64,000 nucleotides of DNA from a bacterium (GCA_965219955.1 OZ244799.1:1248001-1312000); one strand, 5' to 3'; shown: positions 20,494 to 31,834, counted from the stretch's first letter. The notes: generated from the sequence alone by a model not told the origin. Program-made: numbers and translations.

Positions 20494-21576
20494 ATGCCGC
20501 AGATGAGAAGCGTCCTTTTCGCCTTGATCATCCTTGCCTTTCCGGCTCTTTCCGGCGCGAGCCCTGAAACCGAGATCCGCACCCTGCTGCCCAAAGACGG
20601 CATTCCCGCCATCGATGCACCCGAATACGCGAGCGTAAAAGATGCCGAGGGGTTCATGCAGCCGGGTGAGATGGTCATCGGCATCAACATCAACGGAGAG
20701 AAGCGGGCCTATTCCGTGCCCCTGCTCAGTTCACACGAGATCGTGAACGACGTCGTGGGAGGAAGCGCCGTCTCCGTGACGTGGTGACCGCTCTGCTATA
20801 CGGCCATCGTGTATGACCGTAACCTGGGCGGCAGGAAACTCTCTTTCGGCGTTTCGGGAAAACTCTGGAAAAACGTACTCATCATGTACGACCGCCAGAC
20901 GGACACGCTCTGGAGCCACCTGACGGGGGAAGGCCTCATCGGACCGCTCAAGGGGGAGCGCCTGGGGACGTTCCCCGCCGCCATGATGCGCTATTCGGAA
21001 TGGACGCAGCTCTATCCCGATACCCTGGTGCTCAAAAAAAAGCTGAAGGGGATGGGCGGCATGTTCCGCAGCTCCTCCCGGGACCCGTATGAGGGCTACT
21101 ACTACAGCGGGCAGACCGGCGTGATCCCCGAGAAATACCGGGACAACCGCTTGCATCCCAAAACCCTTCTGGTCGCCCTTGCGCTCGATTCCCCGGAAAA
21201 GAAAGGCGAGCAAATCGCCAAGGTGTATCCCTTCGCCGATCTGAACCGCGCCGGCGTGGTGAACGACCGCTTCGCAGGGCGTGACGTTCTGGTCACGTAC
21301 TGCGAGGGGGCGGGCACGGGGGTCGTTTTCGACCGCGTCCTGAAGGGCGAGACGCTGGAGTTCGAACTCATCACGAGCAAGGGAGCGAAGGGCGCCGCCG
21401 CCTGCCGGTTCATGAAGGACAGGAAAACGGGTTCGCGCTGGCAGCGCCTGACCGGCCTCGCCGTGGACGGGCCGATGAAAGGCGCCAGATTGAACCAGCT
21501 TTCCACGACGCTCGCGTTCTGGTTCGGCTGGAAGGATTATTTTCCCAAGAGCGTGATCTACCGCCACCCGAAATAG
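20494..21576 (+). CDS. DUF3179 family exported selenoprotein (Sec98, UxxC)
   Basis: Two same-frame ORFs joined by TGA 20785-20787 read HEIVND...VTW-U-PLC, matching the family motif TYCPLC. Also KDGIPAID, FGVSGKL and FWFGW. Has a signal peptide. Confidence 0.88.
20799..20821 (+). promoter_or_regulatory. Putative bacterial SECIS element
   Basis: Hairpin TACGG-C-CAT(cgtgt)ATG-A-CCGTA after an 11-nt spacer from the UGA. Confidence 0.7.
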
Positions 21577-21612
21577 TGGGATGAACCTGAAGCCCATGAG
21601 CCGGACGCCTGC

Positions 21613-21875
21613 GGGATTGTTGAAAAAGCCCTGTGGAGCGATTTTGGCTGATCGCAAGCTTTTGAAGTTCACTCCCCCCTCAAGGGGGGAGTGATTTTTC
21701 TCTCCTTGGGCTTTTTCAATAGCCCCTCAAGGGGAGGGAATCCCGATTATCGAATTGTTTGCCGTAGGGACAGGCCTCCGTGCCTGTCCTGACGAAGGAC
21801 AACCACGGAGGGCAGGACAACCCTTTTAGGTTGTTCTGCTACAAAATCATCACGAAGGTTTTTCAGCAGCCCCCA
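21613..21875. mobile_element. MITE-like unit with the empty palindrome TCACTCCCCCCTCAAGGGGGGAGTGA, plus a GTAG REP module
   Basis: TTGTTGAAAAA at about 21617, TTTTTCAATAGCC at about 21712, and GTAGGGACAGGCCTCCGTGCCTGTCC at 21764. Confidence 0.65.
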
Positions 21876-21939
21876 TGTTGTGCAGCTCATTTGAAACGCT
21901 TGCGCACGACCCACAGCCGCCTGGTAAGGAAACAGAAAT

Positions 21940-22710
21940 TTGAACCCCGTCATATTCGAAATCGGACCGTTCGCGCTTCGCTGGTATGGACTCATGTACG
22001 TCGCCGCCGTGCTGGCCGGCGTCTGGCTGGTGCGGAGGGAAGCCGCGCGCAAGGGGATGCCCATCACGCCGGATGAGGTGATGAACTTCGGCCTCCTCGT
22101 CATGTTCGCCGGCATCCTGGGCGGGAGAGCCTATTACGTCCTCTTCAACTGGGAGTTTTACCAGAGCGCCTTGTGGGAGGTCTTCGCCATCTGGAAAGGG
22201 GGCCTCGCCATACACGGCGGCCTCGTCGGGGGCGTGCTGGCCGGCTATCTTTACTTGAGGAACCACGCCGTATCCACCTGGGAGTTCGCCGACGCGGTGG
22301 CGCCCGCCGTCATGCTCGGCCAGGTGTTCGGGCGCTTCGGCAACTTCATGAACGGCGATGCGCACGGCGTGCCGACGTCGATGCCCTGGGGCGTGGAGTT
22401 TCCGATGACCTCCATCGCGGGCCGGGAATTCCCCGGACAGGCGACGCACCCCGTGATGATATACGAGCTTCTCCTGAACCTCCTGTGGTTCTTCATCCTG
22501 AGACGCTTGCGGCTCACGAACCACAAAGCGGGCTTCATCTTCTGCCTCTACTTCGTTCTCTACTCCCTCGGGCGCGCCGCCGTGAGCGGTTTCCGCGCGG
22601 ACAGCCTCTGGTTCGGCCCGGTGCGCGCCGCCTATCTCGCGAGCGCAGTGCTCGTCGTGGTGTTCGGGGCGATCATCGTGCGGTGGCGGATGTGGGAGCG
22701 GGAGGGATAG
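21940..22710 (+). CDS. lgt: Prolipoprotein diacylglyceryl transferase
   Basis: LRWYGLMY, IWKGGLAIHGG, GRFGNFMNGD and HPVMIYE. Confidence 0.96.
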   Translation: MNPVIFEIGPFALRWYGLMYVAAVLAGVWLVRREAARKGMPITPDEVMNFGLLVMFAGILGGRAYYVLFNWEFYQSALWEVFAIWKGGLAIHGGLVGGVLAGYLYLRNHAVSTWEFADAVAPAVMLGQVFGRFGNFMNGDAHGVPTSMPWGVEFPMTSIAGREFPGQATHPVMIYELLLNLLWFFILRRLRLTNHKAGFIFCLYFVLYSLGRAAVSGFRADSLWFGPVRAAYLASAVLVVVFGAIIVRWRMWEREG

Positions 22711-22819
22711 AATTCGTGAAAATTTTACGCAGTATCGCCTGCGCTATATTGACTGATTGGATAAATATATGGGATACTTCCTTTCCTGATACGTTAGACC
22801 ACGAAAGGAGATGCCGAGG

Positions 22820-23092
22820 ATGCAGGTATTTGTAGCCTTCAACATCTCTGACCCGGCACTGGTAAGAAAGAAACTGGAACAGCGGTATAGCGGCCGGTAT
22901 TATGACGATGACAATACTTTTTTTGTTGCTACGGAGGGGGAAACTACCCGACAGCTGGCTTCAAAAATTGGCCTCGGAGATGAAGAACCTGCAACTTCGG
23001 GAATCGTTATTCCTGTAACAAATTATTGGGGACGCTATAACTCGGAAGTTTGGGAATGGATCAGCGTGAAGTTGAGCGCCAATGGAAGGTAA
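22820..23092 (+). CDS. Small hypothetical protein, possible ferredoxin-like (Cas2/VapD-like) fold
   Basis: AGGAG RBS, lower GC, beta-alpha-beta pattern and C-terminal YWGRYNSEVWEWI. Confidence 0.6.
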   Translation: MQVFVAFNISDPALVRKKLEQRYSGRYYDDDNTFFVATEGETTRQLASKIGLGDEEPATSGIVIPVTNYWGRYNSEVWEWISVKLSANGR

Positions 23093-23336
23093 GGGTAGTG
23101 TCAGCCCGGAAAATATCGGGCCCAGACAGCCGACAACTCCACCTCCGAATGACTCAAATTGGGTTATGCACGCCATCAGTCAGCTTAATGGAAGGATTGA
23201 TAAAATAGACGAACGGCTGCGCGCCGTCGAAAACAAGATCAGCAAAGCCATGGGCTGGGGAACGGCAATGTTTCTCTTGTTGATTGTGATTCAAATTGTA
23301 TTGAAATTCGCCAACATCTCAATTTCTGTCAATTAA
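23082..23336 (+). CDS. Small coiled-coil protein with a C-terminal TM helix
   Basis: LNGRIDKIDERLRAVENKI followed by a hydrophobic helix. Overlaps the upstream stop. Confidence 0.6.
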   Translation: MEGKGSVSPENIGPRQPTTPPPNDSNWVMHAISQLNGRIDKIDERLRAVENKISKAMGWGTAMFLLLIVIQIVLKFANISISVN

Positions 23337-23453
23337 ACCGCAATTCTCGCCGAGCATATTCGAGGCATTCCCTGAGAAAGCCGGATTCGCCGGCAAATGG
23401 ATAAAACTTTCAGGTCCGAGCAAGATTCCTGCGAGATGAAAGATTTGCGAACC

Positions 23454-23682
23454 GTAGGGACAACCCTCCGTGGTTGTCCTTTTTCAGGATGGATGCAATC
23501 AGCGTAGGCACGGGGGCCTTTCCCTACGGGACCCCAATCCCCTCATCCTGAGCAGGCGCGCGAGCGCCGTATCGAAGGATGCTCGTTGCCTCTTTCCTCG
23601 GTGCGCGCCCTTCGATACGCGGCTTCGCCGCTACTCAGGGTGAAGGGTGTCGGGAGGCGGATTTCGGAAGTGCGCCCCTACG
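23454..23682. repeat. Cluster of GTAG REP and CTCATCCTGAG..CGTATCGAAGG palindromes
   Basis: GTAGGGACAACCCTCCGTGGTTGTCC and an inverted module pair at 23540-23646. Confidence 0.7.
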
Positions 23683-23809
23683 GGATCCATTATTCTCTTA
23701 CAAAAAATTTTCACCTTATCCCGGGAGATTTATCGAACATTTTTGGGTAAGATTACGCAAATTTCCCCTTTTCAACCCATCACCCGAGTCAAAACTGGAG
23801 AGCAAAGAC

Positions 23810-24529
23810 ATGGCAATTCGCATCGTGGATTTATCGCAGGAGATTTATGACGGCATGCCCGTCTATCCCGGGCACCAGCGGACGGGGGTGTTCCCCAACA
23901 AGACGCACGCGGAGACGGCCAAGGCCTATGCGAATTCGCCCTCGGGCCATACCTCGACGACGAACTGCCTCGTGATGAGCGACCACGGCCCCACGCACGT
24001 GGACGCCTTCTACCACATCGACAAGGACGGGGAGACCATCGACGAACTGGGCCTCGAGTGGTTCTACAACGAGGCGATTTGCCTGGACTTGTCGAAATTC
24101 TGCAACACCGAGGACTGGATGGAGCCGGCCGATCTGGAAAAGGCGTGCGCGGAGGCGAATCTGGAAGTCCCCGACAAGGGCAGCGTACTCATCTGGACGG
24201 GCCACTACGAGGCGAACTACGGCGGCGATTTTCACACCTGGCTCCACACGTATCCGGGCTTGAGTGAGGCGGCGATGGACTGGCTTGCGGACAGGGGCTG
24301 CATCAACGTGGGCATCGATTCGCCCAGCATCGATTCTTCCCAGGCCTTCCGAGACAAGGGCTACTGGGCGCACAAAGTCTGCCGGGAGCGCAAGGTGCTG
24401 AACGTGGAGAACCTCGGGAACCTGAAAGAGGTGGTGAACACGAAATTCATCTTCTCCTGCCTGCCGCTCAAGATTCGGGGCGGAACTGGTTCGCCCATTC
24501 GCGCCGTGGCGATTTATCACGGCGAGTGA
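23810..24529 (+). CDS. Cyclase family metal-dependent amidohydrolase (kynurenine formamidase-like)
   Basis: DLSQEI..MPVYPG, HGPTHVDAFYH, VGIDSPSID, VENL and GTGSPIRAVA. Confidence 0.93.
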   Translation: MAIRIVDLSQEIYDGMPVYPGHQRTGVFPNKTHAETAKAYANSPSGHTSTTNCLVMSDHGPTHVDAFYHIDKDGETIDELGLEWFYNEAICLDLSKFCNTEDWMEPADLEKACAEANLEVPDKGSVLIWTGHYEANYGGDFHTWLHTYPGLSEAAMDWLADRGCINVGIDSPSIDSSQAFRDKGYWAHKVCRERKVLNVENLGNLKEVVNTKFIFSCLPLKIRGGTGSPIRAVAIYHGE

Positions 24530-24530
24530 T

Positions 24531-25949
24531 ATGACGGCATTCCTGCGCGCGGCGGCGAACGTTCTCGTTCACGCTCCCGATCTGGTTCGCTACGGCTCGA
24601 AGCCCTGGCGCGAAACGTTAAGCAGCAATCAGGCTCCGGGTGACGTATTCGCCGATCTGCGCACTTTTGACGAGGTGGCCGGCTACCCGCCGAACCAGGC
24701 ATTCATCGGCAATCTGCCGCCCGAAAATCTGGGCGAAATACCGGCTCCGTGGTACGAGAATCCCCTCGCAGGCGCTTCGCCCGAGGGCCATTTTGGGGAA
24801 ATCCTCCCGCAGGATGCTTTCTACGCGCTTCTGGAAGCCGCCGATCAGTTCGGGTTGATCATGCTCGATAAGGAGCGCCCCGTTCCGGGCGCCATGGGTT
24901 CTGAGGCGGTCGCTGCGCTTCTCGAAAGGGAAAAACCTCCCAGGGAATACAAGCAAGCAGAGGTTTCAGGGCGCATCGAGGGAGGCGAGGCCCTGCCGCT
25001 TTTTCAGGATGGGGATCTAATAGGGTGCGTTCGGCGCGATCACGATTCGGACGAGTCGCTGGATGCCCGGATTCTCCTGGAAAACCTCTCGGCCAAGGCA
25101 AGCGGCGCGTATGCGCTCAGTCATCTTCTCGTGAAGGAAAAGGTCGCTCCTGATGCGATTGAGTATGTCATCAGTTGCTCGGAGGAGGCGGTCGGGGATC
25201 GCTACAATCGCGGCGGCGGCAATCTCGCCAAAACCATCGCCGAGATGGCGGGCTGCGCCAATGCGGCCGGCGTGGATGTGAAGTCCTTCTGCGCGGCGCC
25301 GGTGTATGCGCTCGTGCACGCGGCGGCCCTCATAGAGTCAGGCGTCGTTGAAAACGCCGTCGTCGTCGGAGGCGGTTCGATGGCGAAGCTCGGCATGAAG
25401 GCGTATTTCCACCTCGAAAAGGGGGTGCCCGTCCTGGAAGACGTACTGGGTGGTGTGGCGTTCTTGCTCACGAAAAACCCGGAAGACGGCCCCCGTGTGA
25501 ATCTCGAAGTCGCAGGACGCCACGCGGCGGGCAGGCCCTCCACGCCGCAAGGGCTGGCGGAGGCGCTCGTGCGCGACCCGCTGGCGCGAGCCGGGCGCAA
25601 GATAAGCAGCGTCGATAAGTACGCCGTCGAACTGCATAATCCCGAAATCATGCTGCCGGCGGGGGCGGGAGACGTGGCGGCTACGAACTACAGGATGCTG
25701 GCCGCCATGGCGGTCATGGGCGGGGAGATCGCCCGCGAGGAGATACCGGATTTCGTCGAAACGCACGGGATGCCCGGTTTCGCGCCCACGCAGGGGCACA
25801 TTCCCGCGGGCGTTCCCTTTCTCGGCCATGCGCTCGAGAGGATGCGGGCAGGAAGCCTACGGAGTACAATGGTCGTCGCCAAAGGGAGTCTGTTTCTGGG
25901 CCGGATGTCCCGGCAGGCCGACGGGGCTTCGGTGCTGATAGAAGCGTGA
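24531..25949 (+). CDS. grdC: Glycine/sarcosine/betaine reductase component C subunit beta
   Basis: [48 protein letters not shown] and KGSLFLGRM. Confidence 0.93.
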
Positions 25950-25984
25950 TTCATTCGTTTTTTGTAAGAAAGTGGAGGAAATCC

Positions 25985-26437
25985 ATGTTCGAAGGAAAGA
26001 AGGTGATCGCGCTGGGCGAGCGCGACGGCGTTCCCGGCCCGCTGATCGCCGAGTGCCTCGAGGCGGCGGGTGCGGAGGTCGTATTCCAGAAGACGGAGTG
26101 TTTCGTCTGAACCTCCGCGGGCGCCATGGACCTGGAGAACCAGGCCGCCATCAAGTCGATCGCGGATGATATCGGGTCGGAGAACCTGATGGTGGTATTG
26201 GGAATGCCCGGTGAAGGCCTTCGGCTCGCCGTCGAAACGCTGACCACCGGAGACCCGAGCTGGGCCGGGCCCCTGGCGGGAGTCTCGTTGGGACTCCCCG
26301 TTTATCATATCCTGGAAGAAAGGGTGCGAACCGGGATTCCCGAAGACGTTTACGCCGATAAGCTGCTCATGATGGAGATGGTGCTCGATTTGCCGCAGAT
26401 AGAAAGCGACCTCGCCGATATGCGCGCGGCCGGGTAG
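25985..26437 (+). CDS. grdA: Glycine/sarcosine/betaine reductase selenoprotein A (Sec42)
   Basis: [18 protein letters not shown]...TECFV-U(TGA 26108-26110)[11 protein letters not shown]...[25 protein letters not shown], with the CxxU motif. GGAGG RBS. Confidence 0.96.
26120..26151 (+). promoter_or_regulatory. Putative SECIS element of grdA
   Basis: CCTGG-AGAA-CCAGG apical stem (26131-26144) with an extendable lower stem, just 3' of the UGA. Confidence 0.65.
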
Positions 26438-26446
26438 AGGGAGAGG

Positions 26447-27730
26447 ATGTCCATGCGACTCGAAATGGGTTTATTTCCCGTTTCCAGAATCATCATCGGG
26501 AAGTGCTTCGATTACAAAGACGAAACGCTCACCGTGGACGCCGATGAACTCCGCGAACTGGCGCTCGAAGAAGGCGACCTCAAGGACGCGCGCTTTCACG
26601 CCGCCATGCCGGGCGATTCCGCCCGCATCACGAACGTCCTGGACGCTGTGGAGCCGCTCTACAAGGTGAGCGGGCGATCGTGCGCATTTCCGGGGTTTCT
26701 CGGCCCGGCGAAGACCGCAGGAGAGGGCCGCACCCACAAGCTGGCCGGCATGTGCGTCATCAGCTCCACCCGTTTTCTCGGCCCCATGACGGGCATCATG
26801 ACTTTCCGGGAAGGGATCATCGACATGTCCGGTCCCGGAGCGACCCACTGCACGAATTCGGAAACCGCGAACCTCGTCGCCTGCTACGAGCCGCTGGAGA
26901 ACGCATCGAACGAAGCGCACGACGACGCCGTCCGCCTGGCGACGCTTAAAATCGCGTCCCGGCTGGCCGAGCGCACGGCGGAGCTCGAACCCGTCAGGCT
27001 TGAAACCTTCGAACTTGGCGACGTTGACCCCGATCTCCCCCGGGTCGTCTTCGTCGATCAGGTCATGCACCAGGCGTCCATGGTGCAGACGTTCATGTAC
27101 GGCAAGAACCTGGGGGATTCGCTGCCCACGCTCATTCACCCCAACGAGATGCTCGACGGCGCGGTGGTGGGGGCGAACTACAAGACGCAGCAGAAGGCGC
27201 CGACCTACCTCCACTGCAACATGCCGCTCATCTACGAACTCTACCGCCGCCACGGGGTGGACCTGAATTTCGCGGGGGTGATCATCACGCGCGGCCACCA
27301 CGACAACCAGGCACTCAAGGAGCGCTCGGGGCAGTACGTGGCCAAGCTCGCCACCTTACTCAAGGCGGACGGCGCGGTCCTCGCCTTCGAGGGCGGCGGG
27401 AACTCCACGGTGGACTATTGGCTCACCGTTCAGGCGCTCGAGCAAATGGGCGTGCGCGCCGTTCCGATCATCTACGAGGTGGGCCGGCCCGGTTCGGGCG
27501 AGTTCCCGCTCGTCTTTCACGTGCCCGAGGCCGACGCCGTCATCTCCAAGGGCATGCAGGGGGAGCGCATCGACGCCCCGGCGATGGAGCGGGTCATCGG
27601 CTCCGAAGTCGTCGAGTTCTATAACGGCAAGAGCGTCAACACCCGCGAGGCCTTCACCCTGGCCGACAGTGACTACTACGCCAGCGAGTGGGCGAAGGAC
27701 ATCAACAACATGGTGGGCAAGGATTATTGA
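26447..27730 (+). CDS. grdE: Glycine/sarcosine/betaine reductase component B proprotein (GrdE/GrdG/GrdI family)
   Basis: MRLEMG, EGRTHKLAG, REGIIDMSGPGA, PTLIHPNEMLDGA and ADGAVLAFEGGGN. Confidence 0.88.
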   Translation: MSMRLEMGLFPVSRIIIGKCFDYKDETLTVDADELRELALEEGDLKDARFHAAMPGDSARITNVLDAVEPLYKVSGRSCAFPGFLGPAKTAGEGRTHKLAGMCVISSTRFLGPMTGIMTFREGIIDMSGPGATHCTNSETANLVACYEPLENASNEAHDDAVRLATLKIASRLAERTAELEPVRLETFELGDVDPDLPRVVFVDQVMHQASMVQTFMYGKNLGDSLPTLIHPNEMLDGAVVGANYKTQQKAPTYLHCNMPLIYELYRRHGVDLNFAGVIITRGHHDNQALKERSGQYVAKLATLLKADGAVLAFEGGGNSTVDYWLTVQALEQMGVRAVPIIYEVGRPGSGEFPLVFHVPEADAVISKGMQGERIDAPAMERVIGSEVVEFYNGKSVNTREAFTLADSDYYASEWAKDINNMVGKDY

Positions 27731-27827
27731 GGCGGGAGCTTTGTCCAGCGAGATATTCGCCCAAACGGGTGTCCGCCATGTTCACTGAGATATTGATTGG
27801 AATGAATTCATATCAGGAGGCCAGGCC

Positions 27828-29144
27828 ATGAGCGCTAAACTTCGGGTCGTTCACTACTTGAACCAGTTCTTCGCAGGCGTCGGGGGCGAGGAGAGGAGCG
27901 ATCATCCCGTATCCGCCCGGCCGGGCCCCGTCGGCCCCGGCGTATTGCTCGATAAAATCCTGGGCGAGGACGCAGAAGTCGTCGGCACCGTCTTCGCGGG
28001 GGACGGCCTTTTCGCCGAAAACGAAAAGTCTTGCGCCGCCGAGGCCATCGCGCGGATTCAGGAGTTTTCTCCCGATCTCCTGCTCGCAGGACCCGCCTTC
28101 AACGCCGGACGATTCGGGCTCGCCTGCGCCGCCGTCTGCCGCGCAGCGGAGGAAGCAGGAATGCCCGTCGTCACCGCCATGCACCCGGAAAATCCGGGTT
28201 TTGCCGCCGCGGGAACCAAAGTCCACACCGTTCCCGCCGCCGATTCCGCCGTCGGCATGGAAGAGGCCCTGGAAGCCGCCGCACGGCTGGGGCTCAAGCT
28301 CGCCCGCGGGGATAAGATCGGAAGCGCCGCTGACGAGGGCTACCTCCCTCGGGGGATCCGCTACAACGAAGTCGCAGAACTCCCGACTTCGCGGCGCGCC
28401 GTCGACATGGTTCTCCGGAAAATCAGGGGCGAGCCCTACCGGACCGAACTCGACGTTCCGACGCTCGAGGAGATAGCGCCGCCTAAGCCCGTCGCCGATC
28501 TCAAGAAAGCCCGCATCGCCATCGTATCCGAAGGCGGCATGGTGCCTCCCGGCAACCCGGACCGCTTCTCCGGGTCGAGGAACGGGAACTGGGCCACGTA
28601 TTCCTTCGAGGGGAAAGACGCGCTTCCGGGCGGCGCGTTCATCTCGATCCACGGGGGCTTCAACACCGTGTTCGTGAACGAGGAGCCCGACCGCATGCTC
28701 GCCGTGGATGCCTTCCGCAGGCTTGCGGACGAGGGCGAGATCGCCGAGCTTTACGATGATTTCTTGAGCACCTGCGGGAACGGCGGCGCCTTCGTCGAGA
28801 TGGACGGCATCGGCCGTGCCTGGGCGGTGGAACTCAAAAAGGGCGGGGTCGAGGGCGTCGTCCTCCCCGCCACGTGAGGCACCGGCACGCGCAGCGGGGC
28901 TGCGCTGGCGAGAGCTTTGGAGCGCGAAGGCATCCCCACCGTCATCGTCACCTGCCTGCCCGACGTGGCGCGCGACATCGGGGTCAACCGCATCGTCAAC
29001 AACCGCGCCGGGCACTTCCACCATCCTTTCGGCGACCCCTCCCGAACGCCCGAGGCCGAGCGCGAATGGCGTCTCGGCGCCGCCCGCGCCGCCGTCAAGA
29101 CGCTCGCCGAAAGAGTGGACGGCCCCACGGTGTTCGAATACTAA
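27828..29144 (+). CDS. grdB: Glycine/betaine/sarcosine/D-proline family reductase selenoprotein B (Sec350)
   Basis: VVHYLNQFFAGVGGEE, GPAFNAGRFG, ENPG, GGMVPPGNPD and HGGF. In-frame TGA 28875-28877 (PAT-U-GTGTRSGA) continues to EREGIP..HPFGDP. Confidence 0.94.
28889..28905 (+). promoter_or_regulatory. Putative SECIS element of grdB
   Basis: Perfect hairpin GCGCAGC-GGG-GCTGCGC after an 11-nt spacer from the UGA. Confidence 0.72.
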
Positions 29145-29289
29145 GGGGGCAGGTGACGCTTCCAGACCCGGCCAGATCGGAATTCAGCAACTTTCGTGCC
29201 AGTTCCGGACATGCGCCAGGATGGTTTTAGCGAGTCCTGAATCTCGAAGATAGATTTGCGTTTCCATGAGGTTTTCATCAATACCTGTT

Positions 29290-29440
29290 GGGTTGTTGAA
29301 AAACCTTGCAATACCGGGATTGTCGTCATTCGCCGGAATGACGAACGAAATCGCACTCGCCCGTAGGGGCGGTTCGCGAACCGCCCCTACAATCACATCG
29401 CGTCAAACCCTCATTAGTCAGGGGTCTTTCAATAATTTCT
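29290..29440. mobile_element. Short MITE-like unit with GTCATTC and GTAG REP modules
   Basis: GTTGTTGAAAAA, GTCATTCGCCGGAATGAC and GTAGGGGCGGTTCGCGAACCGCCCCTAC. Confidence 0.6.
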
Positions 29441-29563
29441 TCGAGGGCGAGTGGTTTCGGAGTGTGTGGAAGTCTGTTCTTCCGTTGTTTTGACATCTCC
29501 TCGCGCACTGGGTGAAACTGGTTTGGCTTGCTATCTCCACGAGAAATGACAGGAGAGAACCGT

Positions 29564-30016
29564 ATGACGGAATTCGAAACTGCAAGCCTCGCCGTCCAGC
29601 AAGCCGCCCTTGCCCTGCAAAAAGACACGCTTGAACTGCAACAGGCCTCCCTGGCCCTTCAACAAGCCTCGCTGGCATTGCATCGCGCCTCCGTATGGGT
29701 CGCAGCGCTCGTCGGCGCCGCGCAATGCAGCCTGATAGGGTATGGACTCTACATCATGCGCCAGGCCGCAAAGCAACGCGACGCCCAGCACCGGGAAAAC
29801 ATGGCCCAGCATCAAGAGACCATGAAGGCGCTGGACAGCCGGCATCAAGAAGCCATGGCGACGCTGAAAGGTCAGCAAGAAGCGCAAAGCGACCAGCACC
29901 GGGAAACGATGGCGGCCATAGAAAGCCGGCACCGGGAAAACATGGAGGCGATCAAGGTCCAGAGCGAGTCGCTGAGGGAACTCATCCGCCGCACGTCCGC
30001 ACCGCAGGACGGTTGA
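29564..30016 (+). CDS. Hypothetical single-TM repeat protein (heptad repeats plus HxExM repeats)
   Basis: AGGAG RBS, ASLALQQ-like heptads, a hydrophobic helix and five H(R/Q)ExM motifs. Confidence 0.7.
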   Translation: MTEFETASLAVQQAALALQKDTLELQQASLALQQASLALHRASVWVAALVGAAQCSLIGYGLYIMRQAAKQRDAQHRENMAQHQETMKALDSRHQEAMATLKGQQEAQSDQHRETMAAIESRHRENMEAIKVQSESLRELIRRTSAPQDG

Positions 30017-30110
30017 TGGTGTCGGGGCGCCGCTTGCGCCCGTCCTGACGAAGGACAACCACAGGGGGTTGTCCCTGCGAATCCTCCATCCCCCGCTCGG
30101 GGTCATTCCT

Positions 30111-30453
30111 CCCGCATTTGCCCGCATTTGCTAGGACCCCTCCCTCCGCGCCTGCGCTATCCTCCAAACGCGCTTTCGTGAAGGCGAGGTGAGAAAATCT
30201 AAGAAATTCCCGTGATTCGCATGGAGGGCTGGAAGCATGGAATTTTCTGGATTCGGAATGAGCGGCACGGATTTCGGATTACTGAACAATTCGAAAAATA
30301 TCGATAAATTCAGGAAAAGGTTTATGGCTCGAACTAACATGACATAGATCATATATTTAATAAGTTACAACATATAATTAAAGTTATACATTAATAAATT
30401 ACCGAAATGTATCGAATTAAATTTTTTTCGCTCCCCCGCATTTCCCCGCATTT
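30111..30453. repeat. AT-rich element with tandem CCCGCATTT 10-mers, copy 2
   Basis: CCCGCATTTG x2 at 30111-30130, CCCGCATTT x2 at 30435-30453, and a GATAAATTC motif at about 30304. Confidence 0.6.
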
Positions 30454-30658
30454 GTATGAACCGCAAACCATCCTCCTGGCGCATCCGTTCTCCGGTTCGG
30501 CGGGCATCCTCTCCTGGTGAACTTGAACCCCCGCTCCCGATTGCGAACAAAGGTGCGAGCGGATACTATCAGGTACGCAGACATCATGGCTGAGCCTGGA
30601 CACAGTACTACGGGAGTTTCTCCGGCTGGTGGCGAAGCTTCATAAACAGAGGACGAAT

Positions 30659-31834
30659 ATGGATTTTACACTCACTTCCGAACAGAAAAAACTGCAAAAA
30701 ACGGCGCATGACTTCGCCGCGCAGGAGATACGCCCCGTCGCGGCGGCGCTGGACAGAGAGCCCGACCCGATGAAGCGCTTCCCCTGGGACGTGCTGGAGA
30801 AGGGGAGCAGGCTGGGCTTGCGAACCCTCGCGCTGCCAGAAGAGTTGGGCGGCGGGGGTTGCGATATCCTCACGCTTTGCCTCGTGGGCGAGGAACTGGC
30901 CTGGGGCGATCTGGGCACGGCGGTCACGTTTGATCAGACCTGGAAGATATCTCACCTGTTCGAAAAACTCACGAATCAGGCTCAGAAAGAGCGTTACCTG
31001 AAGGCTTTTCTGGAAGACCACCACTTCCACCTGGCCGTCGGAATGACGGAGGAAACCGGCGGAACGGACAACATCATCCCCTACGACAGCCCCGACGCCG
31101 GCGTTCGGACGACCGCCGTGCGCGAGGGGGACCACTGGATCGCCAACGGGAAGAAGCGATACATCAGCAACGGCGGAATCGCCAAGCTCTGTATCGTCGC
31201 CATGAGAACGGATACGACGAAGGGCGTGTCCGAGGGGATGACGTACTTCATCATCACGCCGGACATGGAAGGTTTCCGCTACGGGAAGATTCACGACAAG
31301 ATGGGACAGCGGCTCTCCCTGAACGCGGAGCTCATTTTTGAGAACTGCAGAGTCCCGGAAGAAAACCGCGTCTCGGAAGTGAACCGCGCCACGGAAGCGC
31401 GCCGCATGTTCGTTCCGGGCTCGAACATCGAAGCCGCCGCCACCGTTCTCGGCACCGCCAGAGCGGCCTATGAGGACGCCTTGGCGCACGCCAAAACCCG
31501 GATACAGGGGGGCAGGCCGATCGTCGAACATCAGGCGGTAGGCTTCATGCTGGCGGATTGTTTCGCCGAGTATGAAGCGAGCAGGCGACTGCTCCACTAC
31601 GCCGCCTGGACGGCCGGCCAGAAAGGCCTCTACGACCCCAAAATGGGTTTCATGACCAAGTGTTTCGTGTCCGAATCTTCCTACCGGATCGCTACGCACG
31701 CACTGGAAGTATGGGGCGGCACCGGGTACATGACGGATGCGCCGATGGAGAAATACCTGAGAGACGTGACCAGCTTCTTACACTCCGACGGAACGAACCA
31801 GGCCATGCGTATTCGCTCGATGAAATTTTTATAA
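30659..31834 (+). CDS. Acyl-CoA dehydrogenase family protein
   Basis: MTEETGGTD, NGKKRYISNG, KMGQR, WGGTGYM..MEKYLRD and HSDGTNQ. Confidence 0.94.
   Translation: MDFTLTSEQKKLQKTAHDFAAQEIRPVAAALDREPDPMKRFPWDVLEKGSRLGLRTLALPEELGGGGCDILTLCLVGEELAWGDLGTAVTFDQTWKISHLFEKLTNQAQKERYLKAFLEDHHFHLAVGMTEETGGTDNIIPYDSPDAGVRTTAVREGDHWIANGKKRYISNGGIAKLCIVAMRTDTTKGVSEGMTYFIITPDMEGFRYGKIHDKMGQRLSLNAELIFENCRVPEENRVSEVNRATEARRMFVPGSNIEAAATVLGTARAAYEDALAHAKTRIQGGRPIVEHQAVGFMLADCFAEYEASRRLLHYAAWTAGQKGLYDPKMGFMTKCFVSESSYRIATHALEVWGGTGYMTDAPMEKYLRDVTSFLHSDGTNQAMRIRSMKFL

Follow-up and report, generated by a model that had tools for sequence, protein, structure and literature searches.

A GrdD-less Grd-type selenoprotein reductase operon with an unprocessed, CxxC-less protein B

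Several features of a bacterial DNA stretch of 64,000 nucleotides (GCA_965219955.1 OZ244799.1:1248001-1312000, here called the window, with positions counted from its first letter) identify an unusual member of the glycine reductase (Grd) family. The operon at 23810-29144 on the plus strand, which comprises genes for a cyclase-family protein, GrdC, GrdA, GrdE and GrdB, is a Grd-type selenoprotein reductase that lacks GrdD and has an unprocessed protein B without the CxxC motif. Its gene content, motifs, absences, conservation and phylogenetic position are shown by the sequence data: within its phylum one family conserves it, and it exemplifies a broad, so far unstudied branch from the environment. 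In textbooks, glycine-type reductases belong to strict anaerobes and conserve energy via acetyl phosphate made by GrdD, and the absence of grdD across the whole lineage is the remarkable point. The initial annotation had proposed a non-canonical Grd-type selenoprotein system for an unknown substrate in a non-clostridial host, and this core proposal is borne out by the missing GrdD, the model scores, the tree and the motifs. We think it somewhat probable that the conserved unit, grdC-grdA-grdE-grdB, is a functional selenocysteine-dependent member of the family, belonging to a large GrdD-independent branch, with a mechanism that we assign by analogy.

Gene content and selenocysteine codons

The open reading frames (ORFs) and their translations recover the five co-oriented genes of the initial annotation in the same order, cyclase-grdC-grdA-grdE-grdB, and with the same intergenic gaps of 1, 35, 9 and 97 bp. 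The grdC gene (24531-25949, plus strand) encodes the thiolase/FabH-like subunit of protein C, with Cys254 as its nucleophile, and grdA (25985-26437, plus strand) encodes selenoprotein A; both products pass their equivalog cut-offs (NF040746, 577 bits versus 450, and NF040748, 201 bits versus 130). The grdE-like gene (26447-27730, plus strand), whose product carries Tyr245 at the pyruvoyl cysteine site and a clade-specific Cys257, matches Pfam PF09338 at 355 bits. The grdB-like gene (27828-29144, plus strand) matches PF07355 at 388 bits and the subfamily model TIGR01918 at 405.9 bits versus a cut-off of 65.45. Within the operon PF04723 is matched as well, at 200 bits. Together with selenocysteine (Sec) at the family position, the matches to TIGR01918, PF09338, PF07355 and PF04723 establish membership at the family level.

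To stay open, the grdA and grdB frames each require readthrough of a single TGA (26108-26110 and 28875-28877), which gives the motif CFVUTSAG, with the CxxU of a selenoprotein A, and the motif PATUGTGTRSGA, respectively. A single in-frame TGA is likewise found in all 23 GrdB and all 15 GrdA homologues extracted from related loci, and in the alignments it sits in the Sec column in every one of them, within the motifs CFVU and TUG. The machinery for Sec insertion, selABCD, whose presence in the genome the initial annotation had left to be checked, is there: the genome has tRNA-Sec, SelB (390 bits), SelA (578 bits) and SelD (333 bits), and the SelD gene carries an in-frame TGA of its own.

Two genes with an in-frame TGA followed by a hairpin resembling a selenocysteine insertion sequence (SECIS) had been annotated; both TGAs stand, and the two hairpins fare differently. 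The grdB hairpin at 28886-28907 (plus strand), which lies 11 nt past the UGA and has nine pairs and a GGG loop, is paired in 98.3% of 180 cells across 20 distinct sequences. Two of the nine pairs are changed on both sides, three sequences having A-U for G-C and one having U-A for C-G, and when the partner columns are slid as a control, pairing falls to 12-49% of cells. This covariation lends the grdB hairpin moderate support, the sequences being related. The grdA hairpin at 26131-26144 (plus strand; CCUGG-AGAA-CCAGG) is a candidate: it belongs to the minimum free energy fold and is conserved in close relatives, with a z of 0.06 versus shuffles. As single sequences, neither of the two post-UGA stretches folds better than shuffles (z 0.06 and 0.78).

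The window holds a further in-frame TGA, at 20785-20787 in a DUF3179 gene (20494-21576, plus strand; motif VTW-U-PLC), which is also present in the orthologue at locus L040 and in a 31%-identical paralogue at locus L047 (SLAY-U-TLC). An excerpt of a 2026 review (PMC13188914) already counts DUF3179 among the UxxC/T selenoprotein families.

Absence of GrdD and departures in protein B

GrdD was sought with the model NF040747, which has a cut-off of 350 bits. The best match in the host genome, in a PlsX-like stretch, reaches 21 bits; among relatives, none of 61 genomes has a match at E<=1e-10; and in 51 genomes of the phylum, 34 of which hold a GrdC over its cut-off, no GrdD passes and a single match of 35 bits is seen. 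GrdD is also missing from all 78 loci of the metagenome scan described below, 26 of them with grdC, where the control locus L057 scored. Positive controls gave 549 and 581 bits in Photobacterium and Acetoanaerobium records, two of the three tried, the third being a megaplasmid with only grdG and grdF and no GrdD. Of the two halves of protein C, then, GrdC is present at 577 bits and GrdD was not found. Searches for acetate kinase (AckA, TIGR00016) and phosphotransacetylase (Pta, TIGR00651) have no match in the genome and were positive in 9 and 10 of 14 control genomes, respectively.

The initial annotation had noted that the 64 kb hold neither grdD nor trxA or trxB. The first part extends to the whole genome and to the phylum; the second is correct for the window, yet TrxB (363 bits) and TrxA (126 bits) are encoded elsewhere in the genome, every match lying outside the window and unlinked to the operon, so that the absence of thioredoxin genes from the window means little. 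In a distant relative (L122) a thioredoxin gene sits between grdC and grdA. The ORF at 29528-30016 (plus strand) was considered as a stand-in for GrdD and rejected. Its product lacks a Pfam match and is a small coiled-coil protein that has a single membrane helix and HRE(N/T)M repeats; the ORF is conserved downstream of grdB in four related loci (L036-L039).

Both subunits of protein B have altered motifs, as the initial annotation had claimed and as the alignments uphold. Glycine-type and sarcosine GrdE references read SGN-C-VxxC, the first cysteine corresponding to position 242 in the annotated GrdG. In the window clade the sequence is GAN-Y-KTQQ, with Tyr245 aligned to Cys242 of the GrdG reference and the second cysteine of the pair missing too, so that neither processing cysteine for a pyruvoyl group is left; GrdI reads SGSF. 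According to an excerpt of PMC9908766, the pyruvoyl precursor of Clostridioides difficile GrdE is Cys242. A cysteine occupies the pyruvoyl column in only 9 of 161 alignment rows (2 references and 7 representatives), and 6 of those 7 representatives score 412-631 bits on the GrdG model, the only ones to do so among 97 scanned. The window GrdB reads PATUGTGTRSGA versus TSTUGTCTRCGA in all three references; Sec is present, and the CxxC of the UxxCxxC motif and the Ser of STUG, replaced by Ala, are absent.

The same departures are described for the fluoroacetate reductase in excerpts of PMC10838667. There, FarB lacks CxxC, a motif described as shielding Sec against oxidation; neither processing cysteine is present in FarE, which resembles GrdI in not being a proprotein; the STUG Ser is named as a candidate for the Schiff-base-forming carbonyl; and such substrates are held to need no Schiff base. 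The protein B of the window shows every departure listed in that source, namely those in CxxC, the processing cysteines and the STUG Ser. Formylglycine in GrdB is also speculated on there. A formylglycine-generating-enzyme-like gene (PF03781; 9747-10643, plus strand) lies 14 kb upstream of the operon, and we see no link between the two because the window GrdB has Ala, not Ser, at that site.

All substrate-specific models score below their cut-offs. GrdB reaches 385.5 bits on the glycine model TIGR01917 (602.2), 411.6 on the sarcosine GrdF model (800) and 343.6 on the betaine GrdH model (775), and GrdE reaches 255.5 bits on the GrdG model (780) and 128.5 on the FarE model (675); the D-proline reductase models give 27.4 bits for PrdA (700) and 80.9 bits for PrdB (300). 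Nor does any of 14 further GrdE/GrdB pairs of the phylum pass a substrate-specific cut-off. Three loci served as references: the sarcosine reductase GrdG/GrdF of L056 (880 and 854 bits, over the NCBIfam cut-offs), the betaine reductase of Acetoanaerobium noterae (L058; GrdH 812 bits versus 775, its partner taken as GrdI) and a glycine-type GrdB of Photobacterium (L057; 609.5 bits versus 602.2, in the order grdA-grdA-grdC-grdD-grdE-grdB). Pairwise identities of the window GrdE and GrdB to these three are 35-40%. A sequence search of the PDB returned no solved relative of either subunit, and an 81%-identical homologue of the window GrdE, searched in the Atlas, fell only among unnamed PF09338 clusters.

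Phylogenetic analysis agrees with these scores. There are 1048 GrdE relatives at E<=0.001 among 1.84 billion representatives, and the alignment took 161 rows, 24 from loci and 137 from representatives of 380-560 aa, of which 156 entered a FastTree tree after five near-duplicate or odd rows, namely P0142, L041, L071, L073 and L078, had been left out. A split with support 100 separates the window clade (8 rows, support 100) from the clade of the glycine-type, sarcosine and betaine references; the window clade is nested in a 100-row group without a characterised member. The Cys-bearing rows and the GrdI rows form a 13-row clade with support 99. This tree is midpoint rooted, FastTree readily joins long branches, and the set excludes FarE and PrdA sequences; within that set the comparison with characterised clades, as the initial annotation had suggested it, places the window proteins outside the glycine/sarcosine/betaine clade.

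The remaining half of protein C retains its nucleophile. All 24 GrdC sequences compared, taken from systems with and without GrdD, keep Cys254, which lines up with the stretch of FabH in 4ryb that contains the active-site Cys. For the AlphaFold model of GrdC (predicted local distance difference test 84.4, predicted template modelling score 0.90), the best PDB fold matches are FabH and coenzyme A (CoA) thiolases, with probability 1.0 and TM scores of 0.44-0.56 by target length.

Conservation and genomic neighbourhood

The genome that contains the window is a single contig of 4.28 Mb with a G+C content of 0.61; it encodes a heme-copper oxidase (514 bits), and the closest loci are labelled as Nitrospinota or Nitrospinaceae metagenome-assembled genomes (MAGs). 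A GrdE relative is found in 33 of the 61 genomes searched (G000 included) and in 16 of 22 other genomes of the same genus. The order grdC-A-E-B is kept in the related loci, at GrdE identities of 68-96%, so the synteny across MAGs that the initial annotation had proposed to check is confirmed for these four genes; the cyclase is not part of the kept core. Among the same-genus genomes without the operon, four are near-complete and small (2.9-3.1 Mb) and the other two measure 3.3 Mb at 79% completeness and 8.0 Mb. The operon looks like an accessory trait of larger genomes, because the genomes that bear it measure 3.3-4.6 Mb.

The cyclase gene (23810-24529, plus strand), which encodes a metal-dependent amidohydrolase of the cyclase family (PF04199, 110 bits), is best described as an accessory neighbour. 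Upstream of grdC, 17 related genome loci have a cyclase in 3 cases, a short-chain dehydrogenase in 7 and neither in 7; the amidohydrolase that the initial annotation had taken to be coupled to the reductase is thus not a conserved part of it. The genome has 13 further cyclase paralogues, and no cyclase adjoins grd genes in the 78 metagenome loci. We rejected an assignment as arylformamidase orthologue, as the cyclase scores 68 bits on TIGR03035 versus a cut-off of 223. Its ORF could alternatively open at 23579, but the stretch 23579-23809 is made of repeats resembling repetitive extragenic palindromic (REP) elements; as this extension would run through repeats with about 90-100 genome copies, 23810 is the credible start.

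Downstream of the operon, the window and loci L036 and L042 share an ACAD gene, then an enolase-superfamily gene, then FAH, and other loci have PrpD-like and dimethylglycine-dehydrogenase-like genes or an amidohydrolase and a luciferase-like monooxygenase; the flanks of the related loci contain no consistent fifth gene. Within the operon, the grdE-grdB spacer is 97 bp long in the window (27731-27827), and ten related loci carry inserts of 0.5-3.8 kb at a G+C of 0.41-0.51, some with PIN-domain and DNA-methylase-like ORFs. The spacer looks like an insertion hot spot. The inserts were rejected as Grd parts, being low-GC cargo with a PIN domain and DNA-methylase fragments.

A second Grd-like cluster is found in genomes of the same genus (L070 and L071 in G006 and G022; also in G004), where grdA-grdC-grdE-grdB are followed by TctC and TctA. 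Its GrdE and GrdB are 41% and 47% identical to those of the window, and it lacks both CxxC (UGSGTRS) and the processing cysteine. Five class-level relatives (G041-G045) have 2-3 GrdE-like genes each, with GrdB beside each one fetched; some of their loci keep UGTCTRC and have Cys or Ser one residue past the pyruvoyl column (GFCRP/GFSRP), and GrdD is missing from all these genomes.

Beyond the phylum, metagenomes were scanned by a profile of the wider GrdE clade of the window, and the loci were then probed by local tblastn. In the resulting 78 loci grdB adjoins grdE in most and grdC is present in 26, and the gene orders are grdC-A-E-B, grdE-B-C-A and grdE-B-(E-B)-A-C. The flanks of 20 longer loci contain TctC-type receptors in 4 (8 genes), IclR in 5 and TRAP parts in 2, as well as amidohydrolases, amidases and aldolases. 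Judged from gene neighbourhoods, the carboxylate transporters at these loci and at the second Nitrospinota cluster fit an anionic carboxylate as the substrate, without naming one.

Metagenome runs from sponges, corals and marine samples contain the operon stretch. A DNA contig of 6187 nt from a sponge metagenome covers 23615-29800, from the cyclase through grdB, at about 96% identity. RNA-library contigs from two sponge runs of one study and one coral run of another match all five genes at 90-99% identity, and one of them, 579 nt long, spans 25900-26480 and crosses the grdA UGA; their cover is patchy, parts of the operon being uncovered in some runs. Such libraries can contain DNA, and these contigs give a weak hint of transcription. 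A joint from 23643 to 29352 in one DNA run was dismissed as a repeat artefact, its short side having 32 letters and lying inside the two repeats.

These repeats flank the operon on both sides, and the depth of a DNA run spikes at them. Two REP-like interspersed units lie at 23540-23650, with about 87 and 99 copies in the genome by blastn, and a perfect 28-nt palindrome of a REP-like family, with about 96 copies in the genome, lies downstream of grdB at 29363-29390. This palindrome probably marks the end of the operon; an AT-rich non-coding stretch (30180-30430) follows it. An Rfam scan of 21500-31000 (E<=1) found no riboswitch or other family, and scans of 22700-30700 for promoters and terminators gave no excess over shuffles (3 versus 2.5 and 11 versus 9). 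Farther downstream, at 34000-56000, G+C drops to 0.48-0.55 versus 0.61 for the genome. Gene content is ordinary there: SecA, an M23 peptidase, a luciferase-like monooxygenase, a PrpD-like protein, ABC transporters, a DtxR-type repressor, a ROK kinase and a glycerate-kinase-like protein.

Proposed reaction, rival explanations and known systems

On balance we lean towards a thioredoxin-driven, Schiff-base-independent reductive cleavage of a substrate X-CH2-COO-, in which GrdC would release the acyl group as acyl-CoA or acid and not as acetyl phosphate. A carboxylate of this type would bind the unprocessed GrdE/GrdB pair, and no Schiff base would form, since GrdE is without its pyruvoyl-forming cysteines and the GrdB STUG motif without its Ser. 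The selenolate of GrdB Sec350 would displace X, which may be a quaternary ammonium, sulfonium, halide or similar group, as in betaine and fluoroacetate reductases, and the carboxymethyl group would be handed to GrdA at Sec42 (counting from the start codon at 25985). The Cys of CxxU would then release it reductively to give an acyl thioester on Cys254 of the FabH-like GrdC, and the housekeeping thioredoxin system would re-reduce GrdA. We infer that the acyl group reaches Cys254 and leaves it to CoA or water because the FabH and thiolase neighbours exchange Cys-bound acyl groups with thiols; release as acetyl phosphate for ATP synthesis is not expected, as the genome lacks GrdD, acetate kinase and phosphotransacetylase. 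The system would serve to assimilate or degrade a compound from the host or from seawater and not to conserve energy in the Stickland manner.

More tentatively, in a wider reading that we rate as possible at best, widespread GrdD-independent selenoprotein reductases of oxygen-respiring or host-associated bacteria might cleave onium- and halo-acetates, with sulfonium or quaternary-ammonium osmolytes and haloacetates as candidate substrates, and yield acyl-CoA via the FabH-like GrdC alone for carbon and nitrogen scavenging in the oxic ocean. If true, Grd chemistry would not be confined to Stickland fermentation.

Several points weigh against the proposed cleavage of X-CH2-COO-. The chemistry is assigned by analogy throughout, from the individual steps and the reductant to the class of substrate and what becomes of the acyl group. 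In the canonical enzyme the acetyl thioester has reportedly been mapped to a Cys in GrdD and not in GrdC, which makes an acyl-Cys254 intermediate on GrdC tentative. A Sec enzyme without the supposedly protective CxxC fits oddly with an oxygen-respiring host, the variable flanking genes give no consistent pointer to a substrate, and the marker-gene completeness of the genome is 94%, though it is a single contig. The GrdE tree holds no FarE sequence, none having turned up among the 97 representatives scanned, and the FarE model scores the window GrdE (128 bits) below the GrdG reference (206 bits), so the likeness to fluoroacetate reductase is one of motifs and not of descent. Finally, the pyruvoyl role of GrdE is disputed, and the substrate-binding carbonyl may be on GrdB, a view cited in the excerpt of PMC9908766; for this reason the lost GrdE cysteines alone do not exclude an amine substrate.

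Among the alternatives, a glycine-betaine reductase that releases trimethylamine and an acetyl unit and differs from the clostridial enzyme only by the loss of GrdD appears unlikely to us. In its favour, betaine is an osmolyte common in the sea and in hosts, the related locus L037 has nearby genes for an aminomethyltransferase and for a protein resembling dimethylglycine/sarcosine dehydrogenase, and the window GrdE shares the lack of a processing cysteine with GrdI (excerpt of PMC10838667). However, GrdB scores 344 bits on the GrdH model versus 775, the betaine reference retains TSTUGTCTRC where the window does not, and GrdI groups with the canonical clade, far from that of the window. Moreover, no BCCT/OpuD-type transporter lies beside the operon or in the flanks scanned, and the recurrent neighbours among relatives are TctC and TRAP transporters of the carboxylate type. 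We give still less credence to a canonical glycine or sarcosine reductase in which some other protein, unlinked or unrecognised (PlsX, for example), carries out the GrdD step. Although GrdC and GrdA pass the NCBIfam equivalog cut-offs for the glycine/sarcosine/betaine reductase complex and a PlsX-like gene gives the 21-bit GrdD match, GrdD was not found across the phylum or the metagenome loci by searches that did find the positive control, and no acetate kinase or Pta was found that could use acetyl phosphate. That GrdE lacks the processing Cys pair and GrdB both the STUG Ser and CxxC, with all substrate-specific models under cut-off, argues in the same direction.

The cyclase could instead be an integral first step, hydrolysing an amide, lactam or formamide to the carboxylate for the reductase. 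The gap of 1 bp to grdC, the same arrangement at 90-97% identity in loci L036, L040 and L042, and the 6187-nt sponge-metagenome contig that spans the cyclase through grdB are consistent with such a role, but it seems improbable in view of a cyclase preceding grdC in only 3 of 17 loci, versus a short-chain dehydrogenase in 7 and neither in 7, the 13 further paralogues and the lack of a cyclase beside grd genes in the 78 metagenome loci. That the operon is a decaying remnant without function is an explanation to which we attach very little weight, even though three textbook features are missing and low-GC inserts with PIN-domain and methylase fragments part grdE from grdB in relatives. The frames are intact, each homologue examined has its TGA precisely where Sec belongs, and the core is kept at 68-96% GrdE identity across the family with compensatory changes in the grdB hairpin; the same architecture recurs in distant metagenome lineages, and RNA-library contigs match the genes.

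If active, the GrdD-less operon would widen the substrate and ecological range of selenium-dependent C-X bond reduction, offer a natural test case for the final Grd step, that is, for what GrdC does alone, and point to an unrecognised route by which marine holobionts turn over small carboxylates that are charged or halogenated. Full-text literature searches, which covered main texts, returned among the papers listed no report of such a system in Nitrospinota, Nitrospina or sponge symbionts and none of GrdD-less Grd systems, and searches on Grd homologues of unknown substrate, of the same coverage, did not return the system of this operon. In the excerpt of the 2026 review, the enzyme is described as GrdA, GrdB and GrdC making acetyl phosphate in anaerobes, with UxxCxxC as the GrdB motif (PMC13188914), and in part of a preprint GrdB is said to function solely in anaerobic settings (10.1101/2022.07.06.499078). 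A 2026 preprint, seen as an excerpt, connects the breakdown of riboflavin with glycine-reductase-family genes (10.64898/2026.02.13.705874), which is a further hint of family substrates beyond amino acids.

Compared with known enzymes, GrdC shares with FabH (KAS III) and the thiolases its fold and a nucleophilic Cys in an FCA/VCA elbow, on which those enzymes hold an acyl group that they swap with CoA or acyl carrier protein thiols. It differs from them in sequence, at 11-18% identity in the fold matches listed, and in having about 150 additional N-terminal residues and a DUF5940 C-terminal domain. The fluoroacetate reductase FarB/FarE of Cloacibacillus porcorum MFA1, as described in the excerpts of PMC10838667, likewise combines a B subunit without CxxC with an E subunit without both processing cysteines. 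In contrast to that system, the window GrdE scores 128 bits on the FarE model versus 675, no radical-SAM family was seen among the window neighbours scanned and no Far-type transporter was found, and the fluoroacetate-reducing organism has grdC and grdD among its clusters, according to a figure legend in that source.

Betaine reductase (GrdH/GrdI, GrdA, GrdC/GrdD and thioredoxin) has the same two-selenoprotein A/B design and a GrdE-type subunit without the pyruvoyl-forming Cys, and displacement of its leaving group is presumably direct, with no Schiff base involved. The window proteins are 37% and 38% identical to the GrdI and GrdH references and form a separate tree clade; GrdH reads STUGTCTRC versus ATUGTGTRS in the window, whose host lacks GrdD, AckA and Pta. 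From the glycine reductase GrdABCDE with TrxAB, represented by L057, the operon differs in lacking GrdD and CxxC, in its unprocessed GrdE, in a GrdB score of 386 versus 602 bits and in a host in which no acetate kinase was found, whereas GrdA and GrdC are 55% and 45% identical between the two systems and the Sec positions are identical.

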